A program made the translations under genes and the position numbers. DNA of 64,000 nucleotides. Source: Escherichia coli. GTDB taxonomy: Bacteria; Pseudomonadota; Gammaproteobacteria; Enterobacterales; Enterobacteriaceae. The notes beneath the pieces are model-generated. The model searched no databases, had not been told where the DNA came from, and saw nothing but the letters and a program-made list of their open reading frames with translations. This document shows, in pieces, positions 10,442-64,000 of this stretch. Position 1 is the first letter of the stretch. Each line of letters begins with the position of its first letter. The stretch is taken from the NCBI RefSeq assembly GCF_050920415.1, contig NZ_CP169309.1. The stretch is one strand, 5' to 3'.

Positions 10442-11845
10442 ATGAATCAACAGGATATTGAACAGGTGGTGAAAGCGGTACTGCTGAAAATGCAAAGCAG
10501 TGACACGTCGCCCGCCGCCGTTCATGAGATGGGCGTTTTTGCTTCCCTGGATGACGCTGTTGCGGCAGCCAAAATTGCCCAGCAAGGGTTAAAAAGCGTG
10601 GCAATGCGCCAGTTAGCCATTGCTGCCATTCGTGAAGCAGGCGAAAAACACGCCAGAGATTTAGCGGAACTTGCCGTCAGTGAAACGGGTATGAGCCGCG
10701 TAGAAGATAAATTTGCCAAAAACGTCGCTCAGGCACGCGGTACGCCAGGCGTTGAGTGCCTCTCTCCACAGGTGCTGACCGGTGACAACGGCCTGACTTT
10801 AATTGAAAACGCGCCCTGGGGCGTGGTGGCTTCGGTGACGCCTTCCACTAACCCGGCGGCAACCGTAATTAATAACGCCATCAGCCTGATTGCCGCGGGC
10901 AACAGCGTCATTTTTGCCCCGCATCCGGCGGCGAAAAAAGTCTCTCAACGGGCTATTACGTTGCTCAACCAGGCGATTGTTGCCGCAGGCGGGCCGGAAA
11001 ACTTACTGGTTACTGTGGCAAATCCAGATATCGAAACCGCGCAACGTTTGTTCAAGTTCCCGGGTATCGGCCTGCTGGTGGTGACCGGCGGCGAAGCGGT
11101 AGTGGAAGCGGCGCGCAAACACACCAATAAACGTCTGATTGCCGCAGGTGCTGGCAACCCGCCGGTGGTGGTGGATGAAACCGCCGACCTCGCCCGTGCC
11201 GCTCAGTCTATCGTCAAAGGCGCTTCTTTCGATAACAACATCATTTGTGCCGATGAAAAGGTACTGATTGTTGTTGATAGCGTAGCCGATGAACTGATGC
11301 GTCTGATGGAAGGCCAGCACGCGGTGAAACTGACCGCAGAACAGGCGCAGCGACTGCAACCGGTGTTGCTGAAAAATATCGACGAGCGCGGAAAAGGCAC
11401 CGTCAGCCGTGACTGGGTGGGTCGCGATGCGGCGAAAATCGCGGCGGCAATCGGCCTGAACGTGCCGCAAGAAACGCGCTTGCTGTTTGTAGAAACCCCC
11501 GCAGAACATCCGTTTGCCGTGACCGAACTGATGATGCCAGTGCTGCCGGTCGTGCGCGTCGCCAACGTGGCGGATGCCATTGCGCTGGCGGTGAAACTGG
11601 AAGGCGGTTGCCACCACACGGCGGCAATGCACTCGCGCAATATCGAGAACATGAACCAAATGGCGAACGCCATTGATACCAGTATTTTCGTTAAGAACGG
11701 ACCGTGCATTGCCGGGCTGGGGCTGGGCGGGGAAGGCTGGACCACGATGACCATCACTACGCCAACCGGTGAAGGGGTAACCAGCGCGCGTACGTTTGTC
11801 CGTCTGCGTCGCTGTGTATTAGTCGATGCGTTTCGCATTGTTTAA
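10442..11845 (+). CDS. eutE: Acetaldehyde dehydrogenase (acetylating) EutE
   Basis: 467 aa aldehyde dehydrogenase-family protein; operon position. Confidence 0.92.
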   Translation: MNQQDIEQVVKAVLLKMQSSDTSPAAVHEMGVFASLDDAVAAAKIAQQGLKSVAMRQLAIAAIREAGEKHARDLAELAVSETGMSRVEDKFAKNVAQARGTPGVECLSPQVLTGDNGLTLIENAPWGVVASVTPSTNPAATVINNAISLIAAGNSVIFAPHPAAKKVSQRAITLLNQAIVAAGGPENLLVTVANPDIETAQRLFKFPGIGLLVVTGGEAVVEAARKHTNKRLIAAGAGNPPVVVDETADLARAAQSIVKGASFDNNIICADEKVLIVVDSVADELMRLMEGQHAVKLTAEQAQRLQPVLLKNIDERGKGTVSRDWVGRDAAKIAAAIGLNVPQETRLLFVETPAEHPFAVTELMMPVLPVVRVANVADAIALAVKLEGGCHHTAAMHSRNIENMNQMANAIDTSIFVKNGPCIAGLGLGGEGWTTMTITTPTGEGVTSARTFVRLRRCVLVDAFRIV

Positions 11846-11855
11846 GGAGTAACCG

Positions 11856-12692
11856 ATGGCGCACGACGAACAATGGCTTACCCCGCGGCTGCAAACGGCG
11901 GCAACGCTGTGTAACCAGACGCCCGCCGCGTCGGAATCTCCGCTGTGGCTGGGGGTAGATCTGGGCACCTGCGATGTGGTGTCGATGGTTGTCGACTGCG
12001 ACGGTCAGCCGGTGGCGGTATGTCTCGACTGGGCCGATGTGGTCCGCGACGGCATCGTCTGGGATTTCTTCGGTGCTGTCACCATTGTTCGTCGCCATCT
12101 CGATACCCTTGAGCAGCAATTTGGTCGCCGTTTTAGCCATGCGGCGACCTCATTTCCTCCTGGTACGGACCCGCGTATTTCCATCAACGTGCTGGAGTCT
12201 GCCGGGCTGGAAGTGAGCCATGTGCTTGATGAGCCAACCGCAGTCGCGGATCTACTGCAACTGGACAACGCCGGTGTAGTGGATATTGGCGGCGGCACTA
12301 CCGGAATTGCCATCGTGAAAAAGGGCAAGGTGACTTATTCAGCGGATGAAGCGACCGGCGGACATCACATTTCTCTGACTCTCGCCGGAAATCGCCGTAT
12401 TTCGCTGGAAGAGGCAGAGCAGTACAAGCGCGGTCACGGTGACGAGATTTGGCCTGCGGTGAAGCCGGTGTACGAAAAAATGGCGGACATTGTTGCCCGG
12501 CATATTGAAGGGGAGGGCATTACTGATTTATGGCTGGCGGGCGGCTCTTGTATGCAACCGGGCGTGGCGGAACTGTTTCGCAAACAATTCCCGGCGTTAC
12601 AGGTGCATTTACCGCAGCACAGTTTGTTTATGACCCCGCTGGCGATCGCCAGTAGCGGGCGAGAGAAAGCGGAGGGGCTATATGCAAAATGA
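11856..12692 (+). CDS. eutJ: Ethanolamine utilisation chaperone-like protein EutJ (actin/Hsp70-fold ATPase)
   Basis: 278 aa; DLGTCDVV and DIGGGTTGIA phosphate-binding motifs. Confidence 0.9.
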   Translation: MAHDEQWLTPRLQTAATLCNQTPAASESPLWLGVDLGTCDVVSMVVDCDGQPVAVCLDWADVVRDGIVWDFFGAVTIVRRHLDTLEQQFGRRFSHAATSFPPGTDPRISINVLESAGLEVSHVLDEPTAVADLLQLDNAGVVDIGGGTTGIAIVKKGKVTYSADEATGGHHISLTLAGNRRISLEEAEQYKRGHGDEIWPAVKPVYEKMADIVARHIEGEGITDLWLAGGSCMQPGVAELFRKQFPALQVHLPQHSLFMTPLAIASSGREKAEGLYAK

Positions 12693-54346: not shown

Positions 54347-54597
54347 AAGGATTCGCAGCTCTGTTCCTTGGGGCTGCTTTCATGATAAAGGTTAATTAGT
54401 GAAAGATATTTTATTTTCTTCTGGCGTTGGTTTTGGCATTGGTGCTTTGTTTACAATCGTGCGATTACCTATTCCTGTTCCAAATGTATTGCCGGGTATA
54501 TTATCCATCGTGTTTATGTATGTCGGATATCTGGTGGTGAAATACTTTATGCCATGATAATTTAATACGATGTATTTTTTATATGGAGCACTTAATT

Positions 54598-55552: not shown

Positions 55553-55607
55553 GCAGATAGTAAAAAAGCGCCTTTAGGGCGCTTTTTTACATTGGTGGGT
55601 CGTGCAG
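55553..55607 (-). repeat. Direct repeat copy 1: tRNA-Lys 3'-end fragment plus terminator hairpin
   Basis: gcagatagtaaaaaagcgcctttagggcgcttttttacattggtgggtcgtgcag; on the minus strand this reads CTGCACGACCCACCA (tRNA 3' end) followed by an A-run/gcgcc/ggcgc/T-run terminator. Confidence 0.7.
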
Positions 55608-55674
55608 GATGACTCGCTTCGCTCGCCCTTCGGGCCGTCGCCGCGAGCGGCTCCGTTGTTTCGCTGCGCTCAAC

Positions 55675-55698
55675 TCGAACCTGCTGCAGGTTCGAATC
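55675..55698. other. Palindrome built from head-to-head tRNA T-arm fragments
   Basis: tcgaacctgc-tgcaggttcgaatc; GGTTCGAATC is the conserved tRNA T-arm, present in both orientations. Confidence 0.55.
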
Positions 55699-55708
55699 TT
55701 TGAGTATC

Positions 55709-55763
55709 GCAGATAGCAAAAAAGCGCCTTTAGGGCGCTTTTTTACATTGGTGGGTCGTGCAG
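55709..55763 (-). repeat. Direct repeat copy 2: tRNA-Lys 3'-end fragment plus terminator hairpin
   Basis: 55-bp copy with one mismatch to copy 1, 156 bp downstream of it. Confidence 0.7.
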
Positions 55764-55927
55764 AATCCTTATTCAGACTCTAACCTTTTGAAAAATCAAG
55801 AGATATAACACTAACAACCATCACTGTGGGCCTAATTATAGGCCCATTTTTGAAAGCTGCAAGTAAGAATTGATTTTGGTGATTTAAGTGCACAATTTTC
55901 AGGCAGCGCGGGAGTTGCAGCGGCATA

Positions 55928-56227
55928 TCAGGAGATCATTAACCCGGATTCACCTTCCACGATCACACCACCATGTTCGGTGGTATCTCCCATACGGGCA
56001 ACGGCTTTACCGTTAATTTTGAGAACCGTTGAACCGGAAACAATAGTGTCTTTGCTACCGCTACCTTTGCAGGTGAGCTTATCACCCACCAACGCCAGCG
56101 GAACACCATTATACGTAACAAAGGTCTGCTGACATTCACTGACCGGGCCACCAATATGTGGGCGGGGGCCGGGATCAACTTTCGGGCAGGTATGGTTATG
56201 TCCTTTGAGTACCACGGCTTTACTCAT
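55928..56227 (-). CDS. PAAR-domain protein (putative T6SS spike-sharpening protein)
   Basis: ORF 55928..56317 trimmed to ATG 56227, which overlaps the upstream stop as ATGA; 99 aa, MSKAVVLKGHNHTCP...LKINGKAVARMGDTTEHGGVIVEGESGLMIS with a PAAR-like KAVAR motif. Confidence 0.7.
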   Translation of the reverse strand: MSKAVVLKGHNHTCPKVDPGPRPHIGGPVSECQQTFVTYNGVPLALVGDKLTCKGSGSKDTIVSGSTVLKINGKAVARMGDTTEHGGVIVEGESGLMIS

Positions 56228-56982
56228 CGTCTGTTCTCCTGCGCAGTTTTTGTGAATATGTCCAGAAGTCGCCAGTAAGCATACTCCTGTTGTCCCAGAT
56301 TCAGGCAACCATACCACCGTGGATGCAGAGGATCATCAAAACAACGAAATCCGTCATAATATTGGGCTACTGCCAGTAGCACTTCGGCCTGTCCGCCGGA
56401 TTCATAGCGGGATAGCGCCCGCCTTGCACTAGCCATCAGTTGTCGGTATATATTTTCATATAGCTCAACTGTTGGCGAAAAAGCCGTTCTTTTTTCCACC
56501 GTATACAGGCGGGTGAAAATCTGACCACTCCCCAGCCAGGCATTGTGATATTGGGGGATAATGCAGTGAGGCGTATCCGGCCCCCAGGAATGTTTATAGT
56601 GTTCACTAAGCCAGTCAACAGACCAGTCATCTTTATGTGCTATCAGGTATGCAGGTATAGTCTCATCTTGCGGGGATGTCTTTGCACTAATGTAGTGTTC
56701 AACAATTTTCTGCAATTCCGTATAGCGGACATCCTCCATAAAAAACGATCCCAGGCACAATCTGGCACTGGCAATATGTATAGCAAGCAATTGATCAGGA
56801 ACTTTTTGAGTCTCAGTCCATTGATAGCTCTGTCTGATTAATTCATCAATAGCGGATGCGGGAAGCTTTCTGTCGGTAATAACCTTACCAAAGCGGTTTA
56901 CCAGCCAGACGCGGCCCTTTTTCAGAAATTCCATCATCCGGTGCTCCGCCAGACTACGGTAAGTTGCTTCTGTTATCCTCAT
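56224..56982 (-). CDS. Hypothetical protein, paralog of the 309-aa upstream gene; candidate T6SS immunity protein
   Basis: 252 aa; shares FMEDVRYTELQKIVEHYISA and LLAIHIASA motifs with FVKEALYTQNEVLLKEWLTA and IVLAIEMLAS of the neighbour. Confidence 0.45.
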   Translation of the reverse strand: MRITEATYRSLAEHRMMEFLKKGRVWLVNRFGKVITDRKLPASAIDELIRQSYQWTETQKVPDQLLAIHIASARLCLGSFFMEDVRYTELQKIVEHYISAKTSPQDETIPAYLIAHKDDWSVDWLSEHYKHSWGPDTPHCIIPQYHNAWLGSGQIFTRLYTVEKRTAFSPTVELYENIYRQLMASARRALSRYESGGQAEVLLAVAQYYDGFRCFDDPLHPRWYGCLNLGQQEYAYWRLLDIFTKTAQENRR

Positions 56983-57014
56983 GACTTCAGCCTCTCCCTT
57001 ACGCTATTGCAACA

Positions 57015-57944
57015 TTATTTAAAAAGCGTTTTTGTAAAAGCCAATTCCGGGTTAATGGCGATCAGTTTATCCAGCAATGGATAAAACCACTCCGGGGCAT
57101 TCCAGCGGCTGAAATCGGGGCGATGATCAATTGCCAGCGGTGTTTTTAACAGCGGATGATCGATTTCTGGGGTGGAAAGACCATGCTCTGCCCGAAAATT
57201 TTTTACTGCCTGATATTCAAACGGCCAGAGCAGCAATTCTCGGTCTTCAATTTCATAACCATTTCTGGCATATTCGTCTTCAGTTGTTTCGGTACGTGCC
57301 GACCATTTAAGATGGTTATCGCAAAGTGCTGTCAGCCACTCCTTCAGCAAGACTTCATTCTGTGTGTAGAGCGCTTCTTTTACAAACTGGGTATAAAAAC
57401 GATCAGAGGGGATACCAAATGTCTCCCAGTTGATAGTTTGTTTCTGTTCGCTGGCAAGCATTTCAATTGCCAGCACAATCATTTTTTGCGGTTTAAGCTT
57501 TTTAGCTTTTGCTACGTCAAAGTTTTTCAAACCTTGGGTGAAATAAGGATAATAAAGACGGGCGATATCAAGACGATGCGTTGCCATAAATGATAGGAGT
57601 GGAATTCCTTTCTTATAGAAAAAACCATCTAAGAAACCTGTGGTTTTAGAATATTGAATGGCTTCACAAAACAAATTCATGGATTTACATGCAACATAAT
57701 CACATATTAACGAGTTATCCTCTTTGTTTTTGTAAAATAAATACCACGCATATAGATAACAAAAGGATGAAGCTGCATCATAGAATATATATTGTGAATC
57801 AGATATTTCCTCGCCATTCGAATTGCCCACTTCTAATAAAGCATCAGAAATATCCTCATTGGAAATGTTTATATATCTGTTAACATCCATGTTAAAGGAA
57901 CTTTCATTAACAAAATAAGAATGAATTTCATTGTATCTTTTCAA
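57015..57944 (-). CDS. Hypothetical protein, paralog of the 252-aa downstream gene; candidate T6SS immunity protein
   Basis: 309 aa; AT-rich N-terminal third; C-terminal region homologous to the 252-aa ORF. Confidence 0.45.
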   Translation of the reverse strand: MKRYNEIHSYFVNESSFNMDVNRYINISNEDISDALLEVGNSNGEEISDSQYIFYDAASSFCYLYAWYLFYKNKEDNSLICDYVACKSMNLFCEAIQYSKTTGFLDGFFYKKGIPLLSFMATHRLDIARLYYPYFTQGLKNFDVAKAKKLKPQKMIVLAIEMLASEQKQTINWETFGIPSDRFYTQFVKEALYTQNEVLLKEWLTALCDNHLKWSARTETTEDEYARNGYEIEDRELLLWPFEYQAVKNFRAEHGLSTPEIDHPLLKTPLAIDHRPDFSRWNAPEWFYPLLDKLIAINPELAFTKTLFK

Positions 57945-57946
57945 TT

Positions 57947-58972
57947 TTAATTTCCTTCTTTTTGAGGAAGACTACTGTGAAAAGGAATATCCGTTTTAAA
58001 TTTATCTTTGACTATTTTTGCATCACCAAACCACAAGGAAATAGATGACATTCCCTCTGGGCAAGCTATGTTTTCAATTAATTTATATTCTTCGTTTATA
58101 CCTTGACCAATAACAAGTCCTATAACGCCCATTTCACCATTAGGTTTATTTTGATCTCGAAGTGCTTTTAGCAATTTTTTTACATTTCTTCGTTTTTCAT
58201 CATCCATCACATAACCACCTGGATTTTCTTTATTCATTTTTAACGCATTTTCAATTCTCTCTATAGCATAGTCAATGGCTCCCTCCTGTTTCTCTGATAA
58301 AATACCTTCATACTGCGTAAAATCACCTGCATCGTCACCATGACATGCCTTTGTTTTTACTTCACAGATCAGCCAAAAATCATCCGGCGGCGGTGAAGGG
58401 TTTTTTACTTTAGCAACAAGATCAAGGCCGTTTTTGGTTTTGACGTGCTGAACCGACATCACCGAACCTTCTACTACGCTGAAGTTAACGGTAGCCGTTG
58501 CCTGTTTAGCCTCCTTATTATAGATATGAAATTGTGCATTTCCCTGTTTCATCTTCCTGGCGAGAAGCACCTCGCCAACATCACCAGTAAACTGATTGAT
58601 TTTCAAAGAAAATAAGCTATCAAAAATCTTATTTTTAATCAAAAAATTAGCAACCTCAGTTGCGCTCATGCCAATTTCTGTATCGCCATTAACCTTTACG
58701 CGAAATGTTGCGTGTGTTGTACTGCCAGGCTCAAGCTCTGACTCAATACGTACAATTGCTTCCGTTGCATCTTTATTACCGGAACCTGACGCATGTGTTA
58801 TCCCTACAGTAATCCTGGTCGGGCCGGCTTGTTCTTCAAAAGTGGCAAAGGCCGTATTGGCTCTGAGGACTTCAGCCTCGGCTTCTTTTACTCTTTTCGC
58901 ATCATTAATCGCACGCCGGTTTACCTGCGTAACATTTACTGCATCTTCGATAGCCCCTGTACCTTTTCCCAT
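57947..58972 (-). CDS. Hypothetical protein with a possible PD-(D/E)xK nuclease motif; candidate T6SS toxin domain or immunity protein
   Basis: 341 aa; start overlaps the upstream stop as TAATG; literal PDDFWLICEVK matches the P-D...(D/E)-x-K pattern. Confidence 0.4.
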   Translation of the reverse strand: MGKGTGAIEDAVNVTQVNRRAINDAKRVKEAEAEVLRANTAFATFEEQAGPTRITVGITHASGSGNKDATEAIVRIESELEPGSTTHATFRVKVNGDTEIGMSATEVANFLIKNKIFDSLFSLKINQFTGDVGEVLLARKMKQGNAQFHIYNKEAKQATATVNFSVVEGSVMSVQHVKTKNGLDLVAKVKNPSPPPDDFWLICEVKTKACHGDDAGDFTQYEGILSEKQEGAIDYAIERIENALKMNKENPGGYVMDDEKRRNVKKLLKALRDQNKPNGEMGVIGLVIGQGINEEYKLIENIACPEGMSSISLWFGDAKIVKDKFKTDIPFHSSLPQKEGN

Positions 58973-60306
58973 TATTTTTCCACTCCCTGGTCTTCATTCT
59001 CAATCTTCATTGAGGAAACCTCTACTTCATTTACCAGTGCAACCTTACTGCCAAGGTAAGCGCCGCCACCACTGGTAACTAATGCTGAAGCAAATTTATA
59101 TTGTGGTTTTTTACCAAATACCATCAGGGTATTTATTGCATGAAAGGCCACTTCAATATTATGTCCCCCACCTGATTTTTTATCCAGATAGCGGGAAAAC
59201 TCAAGCAGTGGATTATATCCATCGGCTTTTGAACCAAGCCACCGATTACGCAGTTTATCCGCTACCTCAATACCATGATTGACATCCACAACAAGCATAG
59301 CAATACGAAGAACCTTCATTGAACCTTTTAAAAAAATAGTCCCGGAAACAATAGCAGCAATCGTCAGAAGTGCATCAGCGACCTCTAAAATAACATCCCT
59401 TACAACATCAAGAGACCGGTTCTCATCAGCCTGATTAAGAACGGCACGGATAAATTCTTCCGCCAGATCAGAGGGGGATTTATGTAATGGGCCGGCCAGT
59501 CTTTCAGGACGACTTCCTGCACTATTTGTCGCCAGCTCACCATATATCAGCGATACATCAAGTGTTTCATATGGACGGTATTTCAGTTGCTCATCGGTTA
59601 ACACATCCCGGTATTCAGCAGGAAGACCTATCGGAACTTCTGCATCTCTGTAGATATAAATATCCGGCGCAACCTCAACAACAAAATCATCTCCCCAGAA
59701 TGTACTGCCATGAGTTCTGGCATGTTCCACTTTATAATTATTACTGTAATAAGGGATAATATTTGCACCAACCTCATGGTATCTTAATTTAAATTTAGCA
59801 TCTTCCAGTTGAACGGTTTCTCCTTTATATTTAACAGCAAACCCGTTGCCGTCTGGGCTTTCCCTGGCCTGTTCGTCAAAAAGCAGTGCAAAATTGAGAA
59901 ATGCTTCATCCCCAAGTTGTTTTCTGACGGCATCAAAAAACGCATCCATTGCCACAATTTCTTTTGCTGTTTCAATAGCATTTCTTTCCGCATCCGTTAA
60001 ATCTGGCGAGTCCTGTATTGTTGCATAACGGGTGATTTCATTATTCAGACTACGGAGTGGAATACCTCGCTGTAAATGTACCTGTGAGGTCTTCTTATCC
60101 ACTGGCTCAAAGAAAGATCCCATGAAACTGGCTGTATTCTTATAAAAGTCTTCTATCGCCTGCTGTCCCTCAGCCGTTGAGCTGTCAAACTCCACAAAAG
60201 CGCCAAATGGTTTCAGCGGGCATGTTGCTGTTGCGCTTTTTGCATCACACGGTATTGCGTCAGAAGGAATGCTTCCCGTTGCCGCTCCGTCAGTATCATC
60301 CATCAC
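58972..60306 (-). CDS. Hypothetical protein; candidate T6SS cargo effector partnered with the DUF4123 adaptor
   Basis: 444 aa; sits directly downstream of the DUF4123 gene, the canonical effector position; hydrophobic segment ALLTIAAIVSGTIFL; no GxSxG lipase motif. Confidence 0.45.
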   Translation of the reverse strand: MMDDTDGAATGSIPSDAIPCDAKSATATCPLKPFGAFVEFDSSTAEGQQAIEDFYKNTASFMGSFFEPVDKKTSQVHLQRGIPLRSLNNEITRYATIQDSPDLTDAERNAIETAKEIVAMDAFFDAVRKQLGDEAFLNFALLFDEQARESPDGNGFAVKYKGETVQLEDAKFKLRYHEVGANIIPYYSNNYKVEHARTHGSTFWGDDFVVEVAPDIYIYRDAEVPIGLPAEYRDVLTDEQLKYRPYETLDVSLIYGELATNSAGSRPERLAGPLHKSPSDLAEEFIRAVLNQADENRSLDVVRDVILEVADALLTIAAIVSGTIFLKGSMKVLRIAMLVVDVNHGIEVADKLRNRWLGSKADGYNPLLEFSRYLDKKSGGGHNIEVAFHAINTLMVFGKKPQYKFASALVTSGGGAYLGSKVALVNEVEVSSMKIENEDQGVEK

Positions 60307-60322
60307 TTACACTCCTTTTTTG

Positions 60323-60898
60323 CTATATAAAGACCAGACTATTTTTTTCTTTTGGGTTTTCACAAATAATATTTGTCAGTCCGGTGGTAAATTCTGCAAA
60401 ATCGTCCGCAGGTAAAAAAGGAATAAAATCCCGCACTGTTTCAGGCGCATAATACCGGAACATGACCCACATTTTATTTACCTCATCATAAAGCTGATTA
60501 AATTTTCGCAGATGATGAGTCAGTTCATTCAGGGAAAGATAGCTGCGGATAAAAATACCCCAGCCATTACCCCGGCTGCTTCTTATCAGCCATTCCGTAA
60601 ATGGCTTATCTTTTTCCAGCCGGACGATATAAGGCGCATAAAGAGAAAACTGTTCTCCCAGTTCACCTTTCCATAAGCATGACCATTCCGTCTCATACGC
60701 ATCAAGTAAAACGGCAATATCCGGTTTTTTTAATGCATCAATGATGGCATAAGTGTGGCAGTCAGTTATTTTACTGGCAGATATCACTGATATATCATCA
60801 GATGCTGTTTTTTCCGGCATACTGAAAAGAAAGCCTGTCAGCGCATCCTGGTATAATTGTGTATCTTCCGGCACATCAATAATTTTCAGTCGGCTCAT
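60323..60898 (-). CDS. DUF4123-family T6SS effector adaptor/chaperone (Tap/Tec-like)
   Basis: 191 aa; YAIIDA, YAPYIV, HLRKF and RYYAPETVRDF motifs match my recollection of the DUF4123 signature; ATGA overlap with the vgrG stop. Confidence 0.75.
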   Translation of the reverse strand: MSRLKIIDVPEDTQLYQDALTGFLFSMPEKTASDDISVISASKITDCHTYAIIDALKKPDIAVLLDAYETEWSCLWKGELGEQFSLYAPYIVRLEKDKPFTEWLIRSSRGNGWGIFIRSYLSLNELTHHLRKFNQLYDEVNKMWVMFRYYAPETVRDFIPFLPADDFAEFTTGLTNIICENPKEKNSLVFI

Positions 60899-62967
60899 TT
60901 TTTCCCGTCCTCTTCTTCGGCCTGTTTTGCTTTCGCACAGATTTCGCAGAACGGTTTGCCCTCATTCACCATCGCCGTCAGTGCTTCCACCTGATCCACG
61001 CCGCCGCCCCGGATATCCATTGCTGGCGTCAGGATCTGAAGTTTTTTTGCCTTTATCGTAACGCCACCACCATCAATGGTCAGACTGCCGCCAGGCCCGG
61101 CGATCACCAGTCGCTCTCCGGCGTGCATAATGTATTTATTGGTCTGCGAAAAAATCTTCGTATTTACCGTTTCATCCTTCACGCCCTGGATCACCACCGT
61201 TTTATTGCCGCCAATATCGTCCAGGGAATCAGCAAATATTTTCTTTCTTTCCGAACTGTTCACCACCAGCGTCCGGTTTCTGTCCACTTCGATTTCCTGA
61301 TCCTGAACCACCCGGACAACGGAGTTCCTGCCGATGGTTTCATAGTGATCCCGGCCCACATCTGTTTTCTTGTCCTGACCAATGGTTTCCTGCTGGTCAA
61401 CGCCCACGCTTTTGGCGCGGTTATTACCGATGGTATGGCTTTCATCGTGCAGAATTTCCGTCACATGGTCTTTCTGCGCGTGCATATAGACCTGTTCCCG
61501 GTTTGTGGCGTCTTCAAAACGCAGTTCATTAAAACCCTCGCCCCGGTAGGTCTGCGTGCGGATAGTGGTCTGCGTTTTCGTTTCCGGTAAATCCCCCGGC
61601 GAGCGATTTTTCTCATGGTAGGTGCGCCCCATGATGATCGGCTGGTCAGGATCACCGTTTAAAAAATCGACAATCACCTCCTGACCCACACGCGGAATGG
61701 CAAGATGACCAAATCCCGTCCCGGCCCATGGCTGTGATACTCTGATCCAGCAGGAACTGTTCTCATCCTGTTTGTGATAACGATCCCACAAAAATTTCAC
61801 CCGCACCCGGCCATGCTCGTCGCAGAAGATTTCCTCACCTTCCGGCCCGGTGACGACCGCTGGTTGTGGGCCATCCACTTTCGGCTTAGGCTGCGGCGTG
61901 GGACGCCAGGTTTTATCCGCTGGTATGGCCTGAAACGTATTCACCAGCGTGGTTCCCTGGCCCCGGCTTCCGGGAACGGCCTGCGGCTGCTCGCCGTGCA
62001 GTTCGCTGGCGATCACCTGCCATTCCCGGTTCAGATCGTCAGCCGGATGATCGGTCAGCGTAAAGCGCGTACCGGGCCACAGTTTTGGCGAGTTGCTGCA
62101 TCCCCTGGCGATCTCCGCATCATTGCGCCAGCCTTCCATCTGGTAACGGGTAAAATCTCTGCCATGCTGTTCGTCCTTAAAACGCCCCGGATAGTCCATC
62201 ACCTCATACTGGTTGCGCTGGCCGTTAAGACTGGCGGCATTATGGCGAAAACGCCCCGGCCAGTCAGGGTATTTGAAGGTGTAGTCTTTGCTGATGACAT
62301 ACGCCGGGCGTATCTGCGCACTGTGGCGGAACTGGCTGATATACTCCGTTTCCGTGGCGCGGGGTTCCGGGTTAAACGGAAGGGGGAAGGCTTCCGGCAG
62401 GTAGTAAACTTTATCGCAGAACACCAGCGGCTGATCCTTCCCTTCACGGGCGTGCTCTTCGTAAAAAAATATCCCTTCTTCCGCCAGCAGGCGGCAGAGA
62501 AAACCAAAATCAGTTTCACCGTACTGCACGCAGAACTCCCGCGCCGGATGAGGCTCGCCCAGCAGATAAGCCGTCTGCATCACCCGGTTGTCATCCAGCA
62601 GGTGCTTAATAATGGACTGAATATCCTGCTGCTGAAAATGGCGAAAATTTTCCCGCAGGCTGCTGCGCCAGAAAGGAGGATGCACCCGCAGGTAGTAGTT
62701 CATTTTATGACCGTCATATTCCCCGCGCTCAATCCTGGCTACCAGCCCGGTGATATGGCGCTGTGCGGTATTGTTTTGCCACAGGGTAAGCGTGGCATTC
62801 AGTTCCAGCAGTTCCGTAGATTTAAGGTGGATAGTGTCGCTGATGAGATGAAGATCGAGGGTGAATAATGCGGAGTAATGCTGGGTAAGATGAAAGTTTA
62901 CGACGGCAAAGGTTTCTGTATCAAAATCGCCGATATCAACGGTAAAACGGGTTCCTGTCCGGGGCAT
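60895..62967 (-). CDS. vgrG: Type VI secretion system spike protein VgrG
   Basis: 690 aa; gp27/gp5-like body, e.g. CDEHGRVRVKFLWDRYHKQDENSSCWIRVSQPWAG and repetitive beta-helix region; short C-terminal tail EGKPFCEICAKAKQAEEEDGKK. Confidence 0.9.
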   Translation of the reverse strand: MPRTGTRFTVDIGDFDTETFAVVNFHLTQHYSALFTLDLHLISDTIHLKSTELLELNATLTLWQNNTAQRHITGLVARIERGEYDGHKMNYYLRVHPPFWRSSLRENFRHFQQQDIQSIIKHLLDDNRVMQTAYLLGEPHPAREFCVQYGETDFGFLCRLLAEEGIFFYEEHAREGKDQPLVFCDKVYYLPEAFPLPFNPEPRATETEYISQFRHSAQIRPAYVISKDYTFKYPDWPGRFRHNAASLNGQRNQYEVMDYPGRFKDEQHGRDFTRYQMEGWRNDAEIARGCSNSPKLWPGTRFTLTDHPADDLNREWQVIASELHGEQPQAVPGSRGQGTTLVNTFQAIPADKTWRPTPQPKPKVDGPQPAVVTGPEGEEIFCDEHGRVRVKFLWDRYHKQDENSSCWIRVSQPWAGTGFGHLAIPRVGQEVIVDFLNGDPDQPIIMGRTYHEKNRSPGDLPETKTQTTIRTQTYRGEGFNELRFEDATNREQVYMHAQKDHVTEILHDESHTIGNNRAKSVGVDQQETIGQDKKTDVGRDHYETIGRNSVVRVVQDQEIEVDRNRTLVVNSSERKKIFADSLDDIGGNKTVVIQGVKDETVNTKIFSQTNKYIMHAGERLVIAGPGGSLTIDGGGVTIKAKKLQILTPAMDIRGGGVDQVEALTAMVNEGKPFCEICAKAKQAEEEDGKK

Positions 62968-63406
62968 AACGTTTCCTTAGCAATAATACGGCTCAGAGAT
63001 AACGAAATCATTCATGAGCAATATGAATTATGATTAATAATTCGTAAAAGGAATGTATTTTATAATGACTCTTCCTGTTTTTAGTCAAAGTTGTCATTAT
63101 AATTAATATTATACTAATTAATTTCCAGAAAACTTCTGTAACCAGTAAAAACACTGCTCCGACAACCTAACATAATGTAAATTAACACTATTAACTGGAA
63201 ATTATCATCTTTAAGTTTACATAAATTCCGTGATGCATATCGCAAAGCGGTGATAAATATATATCCTGTGAAAATGAACTTTGCACCTCCACAGAATATG
63301 TTAACGTAATATCATATGGTAGCAGAAGGCTATTAATTAATTATCCGTATTATAAATCTTGTCTGACGCCTTTCTGTTTCTGCTGTATTACGGGAAGGAT
63401 TACCTA
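62968..63406. promoter_or_regulatory. AT-rich divergent control region between vgrG and tssF
   Basis: 439 bp, visibly AT-rich (runs such as ttataattaatattatactaattaattt); no ORF; flanked by divergent starts. Confidence 0.5.
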
Positions 63407-64000
63407 TGGCAATGAACGAACGTTTTTACCGGGAAGAACTGGATTATCTTCGTCAGTATGGCGCGCTGCTGGCGCAGGAATATCCCGCCCTGAAATCTTT
63501 CCTGGGCAGTAAAAACGCTGATCCGAACGTGGAACGCCTGCTGGAAGGGTTCGCGTTTCTCTCCGGCAGACTGCGGGAAAAAATCGAGGATGAGTTTCCC
63601 GAAATCACCGTTCCGCTGATTAACCGTCAGTGGCCCAATTATTTGCGCCCCGTTCCGCCGATGACCGTTATCGAATACACGCCGGACAGCTGCAGGCTTA
63701 CCGCTCCCCTGACCGTTTCACGCGGTGAGCAGGTGATGAATCCGGGGCAGGACAGCCAGCCGGAAAACAGCCGCCCCGGTGATGAATCAGGGGCTACCGG
63801 GGGGCCACCTTCCTGTATCTTCACTTTGTGCCGTGATATCCGCCTCCTGCCGTTGTGCATTGAAACAATACAGAGTCGCAGCAGCCCGCAATCCAGTACC
63901 CTTGATCTCATTTTCACCGTGACGGGAAAAGGCCGGATCGCCACCGCCGATCTGAATCAGATCAGTTTCTGGCTGGGCGATGCGGACGAACGCAGCCGCA
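63407..64000 (+). CDS. tssF: Type VI secretion baseplate protein TssF (ImpG/VasA family), N-terminal 198 aa; continues beyond the window
   Basis: Open frame from ATG 63407 to the window end with no stop (absent from the ORF track for that reason); MAMNERFYREELDYLRQYGALLAQEYPALKSFLGSKNADPNVERLLEGFAFLSGRL... matches the TssF N-terminal signature. Confidence 0.75.

Follow-up and report, generated by a model that had tools for sequence, protein, structure and literature searches.

The cassette analysed here belongs to a type VI secretion system (T6SS) and lies in a 64,000-nucleotide (nt) stretch of an Escherichia coli genome (contig NZ_CP169309.1, assembly GCF_050920415.1), referred to below as the window. 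Our main concern is the relationship and the function of two of its genes, which encode proteins of 309 and 252 amino acids (aa). The window holds an E. coli-type chromosome (ligA ... xapA, xapB, xapR), and the cassette, encoded on the minus strand, is placed between xapR and a tssF/tssG cluster. It comprises seven genes in the order vgrG, DUF4123, 444-aa, 341-aa, 309-aa, 252-aa and PAAR, the 309- and 252-aa genes being the fifth and the sixth:

60895..62967, minus strand: vgrG, 690 aa, the T6SS spike and first gene of the cassette (named 'type VI secretion system Vgr family protein' in an identical E. coli record).
60323..60898, minus strand: short DUF4123 (Tap/Tec-type) adaptor of 191 aa (annotated as DUF4123 domain-containing; weak NCBIfam Tla1 match, 3e-5).
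58972..60306, minus strand: 444-aa protein of an unannotated family, candidate co-effector or carrier (hydrophobic segment at aa 301-330, position before the nuclease gene).
57947..58972, minus strand: 341-aa candidate PD-(D/E)xK nuclease toxin (conserved E134, D184, E204-x-K206 and Q229).
57015..57944, minus strand: 309-aa candidate immunity protein, TTG start, predicted to be cytoplasmic and all-helical with a PA2201/PoNi-like fold (fold model and context).
56224..56982, minus strand: protein of 252 aa from a small family without annotation, a candidate co-adaptor that would work with the DUF4123 adaptor (DUF4123 fusion and adjacency in relatives).
55928..56227, minus strand: PAAR protein of 99 aa, the spike tip and last gene of the cassette (NCBIfam T6SS_PAAR_dom, 5e-9; PAAR annotation in the identical record).

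The 444- and 341-aa open reading frames (ORFs) overlap, 2 nt separate the 341-aa from the 309-aa gene and 32 nt the 309-aa from the 252-aa gene, and the stop codon of the latter overlaps the start codon of the PAAR gene as ATGA. The 252-aa ORF starts with ATG and has GGGAGAGG ahead of it, a good Shine-Dalgarno sequence. Because a promoter and terminator scan gave nothing convincing between the 309- and 252-aa genes, with counts about equal to the shuffle expectation, the cassette is treated here as one operon. Start calls differ in public annotation, where the 252-aa gene codes for 237 aa in PGAP and the 309-aa protein has 291 aa in NCBI entry P0001; the longer forms, including the TTG start, are supported by the N-termini conserved in the family alignments ('MR(I/L)T..T' and 'M.R.NEI.KY').

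An earlier reading of this DNA, the original prediction, had described two adjacent minus-strand ORFs at these coordinates, the 309-aa gene with an AT-rich 5' end, in the context of a T6SS effector cassette. In these respects it was right: the GC content is 0.31 at 57500-57999, and both genes lie downstream of vgrG, the DUF4123 gene and two further ORFs. It also took the pair for tandem divergent paralogs, sharing a conserved block visible by eye and representing a duplicated immunity array. The six peptide strings quoted for that block are all present and collinear, at positions 156, 187 and 250 of the 309-aa protein and 65, 81 and 129 of the 252-aa protein. Their similarity, however, stays at chance level. 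The best BLASTP alignment of the two proteins has an E value of 1.4 and falls outside the quoted blocks, and their Smith-Waterman local score of 32 compares with 34.0 +/- 5.5 in 300 shuffles (z = -0.37), being reached by 66% of them. The best of the quoted blocks (20 aa, 4 identities) also scores 32, a value equalled or exceeded in 12% of the shuffles, and the second one scores -4. Comparison of family profiles gave the same answer. Family alignments were built from database homologues (in the same database, the 309-aa protein has 142 matches and the 252-aa protein 8), and hhalign assigned the two families a probability of 0.87% (43 versus 8 sequences); once the 252-aa family had been enlarged to 21 sequences after a search of 1.84 billion representatives, this figure was 0.17% (43 versus 21 sequences).

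Since shuffles, BLASTP and profile comparison are all non-significant, the 'conserved block' is a chance resemblance of two helical proteins, and the 309- and 252-aa genes are unrelated, not paralogs. There is thus no duplicated immunity array in the window, where a scan of the whole stretch with hidden Markov models (HMMs) finds one copy of each family. The predicted structures of both proteins are all-helical, the 252-aa model being of low confidence. Neither protein has a signal-peptide-like or transmembrane-like segment, the maximum of the 19-residue Kyte-Doolittle mean being 1.02 for the 309-aa and 1.39 for the 252-aa protein, in agreement with the lack of signal peptides that had been stated for both.

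What the two genes do must be read from their relatives and neighbours. The cassette (window 55800-63200) is present at 100% identity in one of 5,426 complete E. coli genomes, that of the food isolate MFDS1022581 from Korea, and other E. coli match part of vgrG alone, at about 73%. In the identical record the four middle genes are all 'hypothetical protein', and the 309-, 252-, 341- and 444-aa proteins give nothing above noise in Pfam, NCBIfam and PADLOC scans, nor do 28 divergent relatives of the four families in a Pfam scan. The protein clusters of the cassette were found on 55-90 contigs of a large collection, and the families are distributed over E. coli, Salmonella, Serratia, Proteus, Providencia, Pectobacterium and the bee-gut genera Gilliamella and Frischella.

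In total, 21 related loci were collected and mapped with HMMs of each family. The complete cassette order, with the 309-aa family in one or more copies, occurs in eight loci: the window, a Logan contig, Serratia fonticola, Serratia silvae, a metagenome-assembled genome of Enterobacteriaceae, Budvicia aquatica, Providencia stuartii and Proteus cibi. VgrG homologues lead the cassette in L002, L004, L008 and L009, and the DUF4123 domain (PF13503) is present in the homologues of the adaptor gene. The gene set was found again, reordered, in distant GC-rich genomes: L018, L019 and L020 have the order vgrG-DUF4123-252-444-341-309, which L022, a 3.2-kb contig, follows up to a 341-family gene cut at the contig end, and in L021 vgrG-DUF4123-252-PAAR form one block with 444-341-309 on the opposite strand. 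Between cassettes, the identities of the 444-, 341- and 309-aa proteins vary together, whereas that of the 252-aa protein remains at 21-39% regardless. In Providencia stuartii NCTC11800 (L011), the 444-341-309 block is duplicated in tandem and 252-PAAR is not; in this same locus vgrG and the DUF4123 gene are each broken into several ORFs, which may be pseudogenes or assembly frameshifts.

Other peculiarities of these loci deserve a brief mention. In L020, the place between the 309-family gene and PAAR, where enterobacteria have the 252-aa gene, is taken by a gene for 249 aa (11404-12153) whose product starts with a clear signal peptide (MKRLCLALLLLAAPAQAQA...) and is unrelated to the 252-aa family. 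A relaxase gene (PF03432, 156-1466) adjoins the distant cassette on the 9-kb contigs L018 and L019, which suggests a plasmid or another mobile element as carrier. In Proteus vulgaris (L003; CP090064.1, 893662-914612), vgrG-DUF4123-Lipase_3 is followed by an array of more than 17 kb that exceeds the collected 21-kb locus. It contains eight PAAR genes of 89 aa (89-98% identity). Interleaved with these are members of two other families (262/263 aa and 308/317 aa), four 309-family genes, two 252-like genes of 214 aa and a gene of 196 aa that encodes a nuclease domain on its own.

Directly upstream of the 309-aa gene lies the 341-aa gene. An alignment of 12 members of its family, down to about 20% identity, reveals four conserved elements (window numbering): G-x-x-G-E134; G-x-D184; a proline-rich loop followed by W-x-x-x-(E/D)204-x-K206; and S-x-x-Q229, with D-x-K in place of E-x-K at position 204 in two of the 12. 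As judged from the motif, the conserved residues are a putative PD-(D/E)xK core, the same list as in Tox-REase-1, a restriction-endonuclease-fold toxin with the signature 'E, D, ExK, Q' (PMC3482391). The 341-aa protein finds no counterpart among the PDB sequences either, but on motif and context it looks like a nuclease toxin, in keeping with the cytoplasm-acting nuclease that the original prediction had envisaged. A kinship between the 341- and 252-aa families, considered because both gene types alternate with 309-family genes in the Proteus array, was rejected at an hhalign probability of 0.12%.

In the loci scanned, a 309-family gene stands directly 3' of every 341-family gene or remnant, and this adjacency is kept even where the cassette is rearranged (L021); the family occurs without a toxin in the Gilliamella arrays L005 and L015. 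In the orphan islands of Pectobacterium (L006), Serratia (L010), Providencia (L012) and Proteus (L013), the 341-aa gene is reduced to 3' fragments and the 309-family ORFs are full length. The family is also amplified, with three copies in Gilliamella (L005, no T6SS genes nearby), three in Pectobacterium, four in Proteus vulgaris, and two plus a fragment in Serratia fonticola. The confident model of the 309-aa protein has two all-alpha domains, and its best structural match is PA2201 (2FEF), that is, the PoNi fold; an independent Foldseek search returned immunity-annotated proteins. Imm-PA2201 (PDB 2FEF; DUF1910 plus DUF1911) and Imm49 are immunity proteins of Tox-REase-1 (Zhang 2012, PMC3482391). 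Across the family, conservation centres on the C-terminal half (residues 153-284) and the N-terminal half varies, as would be expected if one of the halves carried the specificity. Three conserved stretches, D172-W173, W240-P-F-E243 and D262-H263-P264, may at most be a loose echo, in the same order, of the motifs of PoNi (D, W, GxWxxE, D, YPxD; PMC3482391). Going by fold model and context, the 309-aa protein is very probably an immunity protein.

In 11 loci a 444-family gene immediately precedes the 341-family gene, and in L011 it is co-duplicated with the nuclease and immunity genes. The 444-aa protein has one hydrophobic, glycine-rich segment (aa 301-330), kept in distant loci too, and by analogy with paired systems this suggests a co-effector or carrier.

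The 252-aa protein belongs to a small family, with 17 representatives among the 1.84 billion proteins searched and a highly conserved C-terminal motif, AQYYDGxxCFDDPLRPRW, throughout. One of its relatives, the 511-aa protein P0149, is a fusion that consists of DUF4123 (PF13503, aa 87-218, E 2.7e-17) and, C-terminal to it, a domain like the 252-aa protein (aa 268-479, library-wide E 1.5e-5). P0149 is encoded upstream of a GH108/PG_binding_3 peptidoglycan hydrolase, which is another effector type, with no 444, 341 or 309 homologue nearby. In the five GC-rich loci L018-L022, a 252-like gene directly follows a short DUF4123 gene, the DUF4123 partners in all of them having 184-205 aa. Tap proteins (DUF4123) have been described as bilobed: the N-lobe, about 177 residues long and conserved, binds to the C-terminus of VgrG, and the C-lobe, helical and variable, recognises the effector (Colautti 2024, PMC11582642). 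With this description and a DUF4123 protein of 191 aa in the window, the 252-aa family can be read as supplying the effector-side function in trans. Every complete cassette has one 252-family gene, placed after the last 309 copy, whatever the copy number of the latter (1-3). In the orphan arrays L003 and L012 the family is represented by fragments or distant copies of about 214 aa only, and it is broken up in L012 and L013, where the 309-aa family is intact.

Nor does the 252-aa family behave as an immunity family would: in L018-L020 and L022 it precedes the effector genes, and in L021, the most telling case, it belongs to another block than they do. Its divergence across nine cassettes correlates best with that of DUF4123 (Spearman 0.90; 0.78 for 444 and 0.41 for PAAR) and worst with that of the nuclease (0.28), although these nine loci are related, their pairs are not independent and the sample is small and phylogenetically non-independent. 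We regard the 252-aa protein as a candidate co-adaptor, possibly the detached effector-binding lobe of the adaptor.

Taken together, the reading we favour, with a probability of about 0.6, is that of two unrelated genes in one T6SS cargo-effector operon, the 309-aa gene for immunity and the 252-aa gene as a delivery accessory. The 341-aa PD-(D/E)xK-type nuclease toxin would act in the cytoplasm of the prey, and the 309-aa protein, with its PA2201/PoNi-like two-domain helical fold, would be the cognate cytoplasmic immunity protein, which binds the nuclease and in this way protects producer and siblings. The 191-aa DUF4123 stub would correspond roughly to the VgrG-binding N-lobe alone, the 252-aa family would provide in trans what longer Tap adaptors have as a variable helical C-lobe, and the 252-aa protein would help to load the 444- and 341-aa cargo on the VgrG/PAAR tip. 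We infer the nuclease activity, its neutralisation by the 309-aa protein and the contact of the 252-aa protein with DUF4123, cargo or PAAR. The more specific form of this proposal is a split Tap adaptor, where the DUF4123 stub docks on VgrG and the free 252-aa lobe couples the stub, possibly together with the PAAR tip, to the 444-aa membrane-inserting carrier and the 341-aa nuclease; it is a tentative reading, to which we give somewhat less than even odds. The original prediction is therefore partly confirmed in its observations and partly supported in its interpretation: a role in immunity is very probable for the 309-aa gene, and this family does build tandem immunity arrays in other genomes, but the 252-aa gene lacks immunity-like behaviour and the window contains no array.

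Several results weigh against this proposal. The DUF1910 and DUF1911 (PoNi) models do not match the 309-aa protein even at E <= 10, nor eight divergent members of its family, a PDB sequence profile search with the family does not find 2FEF, and PoNe sequence models do not match the 341-aa protein, again at E <= 10. The immunity assignment thus rests on fold and context. The PDB-sequence matches that the 309- and 341-aa families do give (amyloid precursor protein, calmodulin) were set aside as chance. With regard to the 252-aa protein, its model is helical but poor (predicted local distance difference test, pLDDT, of 59, from eight sequences), too poor to assign a fold or to compare it with Tap C-lobes, and a Foldseek search with it gave its own family plus weak DUF4123-annotated matches (E 0.1). 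The family is still intact in the orphan islands L003, L006 and L015. Finally, even though the DUF4123 and 252-aa genes share an operon in the window and in seven other cassettes, they are three genes apart in all of them, and in the window the 252-aa gene is translationally coupled to PAAR, which a PAAR-related role fits equally well.

The latter role is the content of the alternative that survives best, in which the 252-aa protein would be directed to PAAR, as a tip chaperone or a bridge between PAAR and cargo, rather than being a partner of DUF4123. The 252-aa gene is directly upstream of PAAR in eight out of eight enterobacterial cassettes and in the orphan islands L006, L013 and L015, the two genes are also adjacent in L021, and the codon overlap in the window leaves room for a tip-related role in enterobacteria. 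A precedent would be TseT, loaded onto PAAR4 by TecT/co-TecT according to PMC6560169. However, no PAAR gene was detected after the cassette on L018 and L019 or in the 10 kb around the L016 fusion, the fusion partner of the 252-like domain is DUF4123 and not PAAR, and co-variation with PAAR is weak (0.41 versus 0.90 for DUF4123). As an account that replaces the DUF4123 partnership we consider it unlikely; the two roles are not mutually exclusive and can coexist.

The 252-aa protein could instead be a second, unrelated immunity protein, directed against a membrane-active 444-aa effector in a nested E1-E2-I2-I1 arrangement. The hydrophobic segment means that the 444-aa protein could itself be a toxin, both families occur together in nearly all loci, and the persistence of the 252-aa ORF in the three orphan islands named above would be accounted for. 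Nevertheless, we find it improbable. The DUF4123-252 fusion locus is without a 444 homologue, the 252-aa gene comes ahead of 444 in L018-L020 and L022, it stays single where 444-341-309 is duplicated (L011), it is fragmented in L012 and L013 next to intact 309-family genes, and its divergence is closer to that of DUF4123 (0.90) than to that of 444 (0.78). Moreover, membrane-inserting toxins are not usually countered by a soluble protein that lacks a signal peptide.

Far less probable is that the 309-aa protein is a helical accessory or structural component whose PA2201 match reflects a generic helical-bundle resemblance. Such a component would not be expected in orphan tandem arrays without T6SS genes (L005) or as intact copies after toxin remnants, nor to hold strictly to its position 3' of the nuclease gene, even in L021; the immunity-annotated proteins from the independent Foldseek search and the contrast between the variable N-terminal and the conserved C-terminal half speak against it as well. 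The least credible reading is that of divergent tandem paralogs forming a duplicated immunity array against the neighbouring toxin or toxins, since adjacency, a common strand, a place downstream of T6SS effector candidates, the absence of signal peptides and two all-helical predictions are outweighed by the lack of homology at pairwise or profile level, the different distributions (142 versus 8 matches), amplification confined to the 309-aa family, and the occurrence of the 252-aa family ahead of the effector or in a fusion with DUF4123.

The surroundings of the cassette offer some further observations. A full-length RtT RNA element (Rfam RF00391, 51.6 bits) lies at 55593-55718 on the minus strand, between xapR and the PAAR gene, and also in the identical record; it borders on the T6SS island, whose insertion junction it may mark. 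On the other side, tssF starts at about 63406 on the plus strand and runs past the end of the window, followed by tssG, as mapped from the identical record, so the T6SS locus extends beyond the window. The intergenic region between vgrG and tssF (62750-63500) is strongly AT-rich (GC 0.34-0.37) and probably serves as a divergent promoter region. The identical record also annotates a DUF1427 family protein of 52 aa between xapB and xapR (about 54399-54557, plus strand), which is unrelated to the cassette.

If the proposal is correct, four families of hypothetical proteins could gain names, as a nuclease toxin with its PoNi-fold immunity protein, a candidate co-effector and a partner of the adaptor. 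It would describe a five-family delivery and immunity system common to Enterobacterales, Orbales and distant GC-rich bacteria, of which the four specific families are outside Pfam and NCBIfam. Standing free beside a stub Tap adaptor as its partner, the 252-aa family would represent a new variation on the adaptor theme; a lobe that has its own gene in one lineage but is part of a fusion in another would make a handy system for the study of adaptor-cargo matching, and it would help to explain how effector cassettes are exchanged. There is also a caution for reading sequences by eye, as short collinear 'conserved blocks' in two helical proteins were here at chance level.

Among known systems, the closest to the toxin-immunity pair is the polymorphic toxin system PoNe/PoNi, equivalent to Tox-REase-1 and Imm-PA2201, where PoNi (DUF1911/DUF1910) has been shown by experiment to bind and neutralise the PD-(D/E)xK DNase PoNe (Jana 2019, PMC6688995). 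The candidate pair shares with it the toxin signature E, D, (E/D)xK, Q, an immunity gene immediately 3' and T6SS delivery, and like PoNi and Imm-PA2201 the 309-aa protein is predicted to be cytoplasmic and all-helical, with about 300 aa, PA2201 as best structural match and orphan copies. Contrary to PoNe/PoNi, no Pfam or NCBIfam model matches the 309- or 341-aa protein or the 28 divergent relatives, and the 341-aa toxin is always paired with a separate 444-aa protein, with no FIX, MIX or other known N-terminal marker found. Judged from motif, fold model and context, the pair is a candidate new, sequence-divergent member of the PoNe/PoNi-like kind.

On the delivery side, the cassette follows the Tap/Tec scheme of vgrG, then a DUF4123 gene, then cargo, and P0149 has the bilobed layout. 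It departs from that scheme in its DUF4123 protein of 191 aa and in a putative C-lobe that is a separate gene, found in enterobacteria at the far end of the operon beside PAAR. A nuclease cargo is known there too, TseT being a restriction-endonuclease-fold toxin. In Pseudomonas aeruginosa, the adaptor-co-adaptor pair TecT/co-TecT loads TseT, whose immunity protein is TsiT, onto PAAR4 (Burkinshaw 2018, as related in PMC6560169). The cassette proposed here would share with it a DUF4123 adaptor joined by another helper that is not secreted, a cargo nuclease of the restriction-endonuclease superfamily, a 3' immunity gene and a PAAR of its own; gene order and the family of the helper differ. Co-TecT is a DUF2875 protein, and no Pfam match to DUF2875 was obtained in the 252- and 444-aa proteins or their relatives.

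The use of further operon-encoded proteins has its own parallels. In the pef operon of Proteus mirabilis, pefF and pefG, located 3' of the immunity gene, are needed for killing and not for immunity (Alteri 2017, PMC5714391). The protein families differ and PefD is a PAAR-HNH toxin, which rules out that the cassette is a pef operon, and the comparison is one of analogy only. As a candidate pair of co-effector and effector, the 444- and 341-aa proteins resemble the binary effector module VP1388/VP1390 (Dar 2021, PMC8728615), in which VP1388 belongs to the MIX proteins. What pef and VP1388/VP1390 have in common with the arrangement proposed here is the delivery of a toxin by the T6SS with the aid of additional proteins encoded in the same operon.

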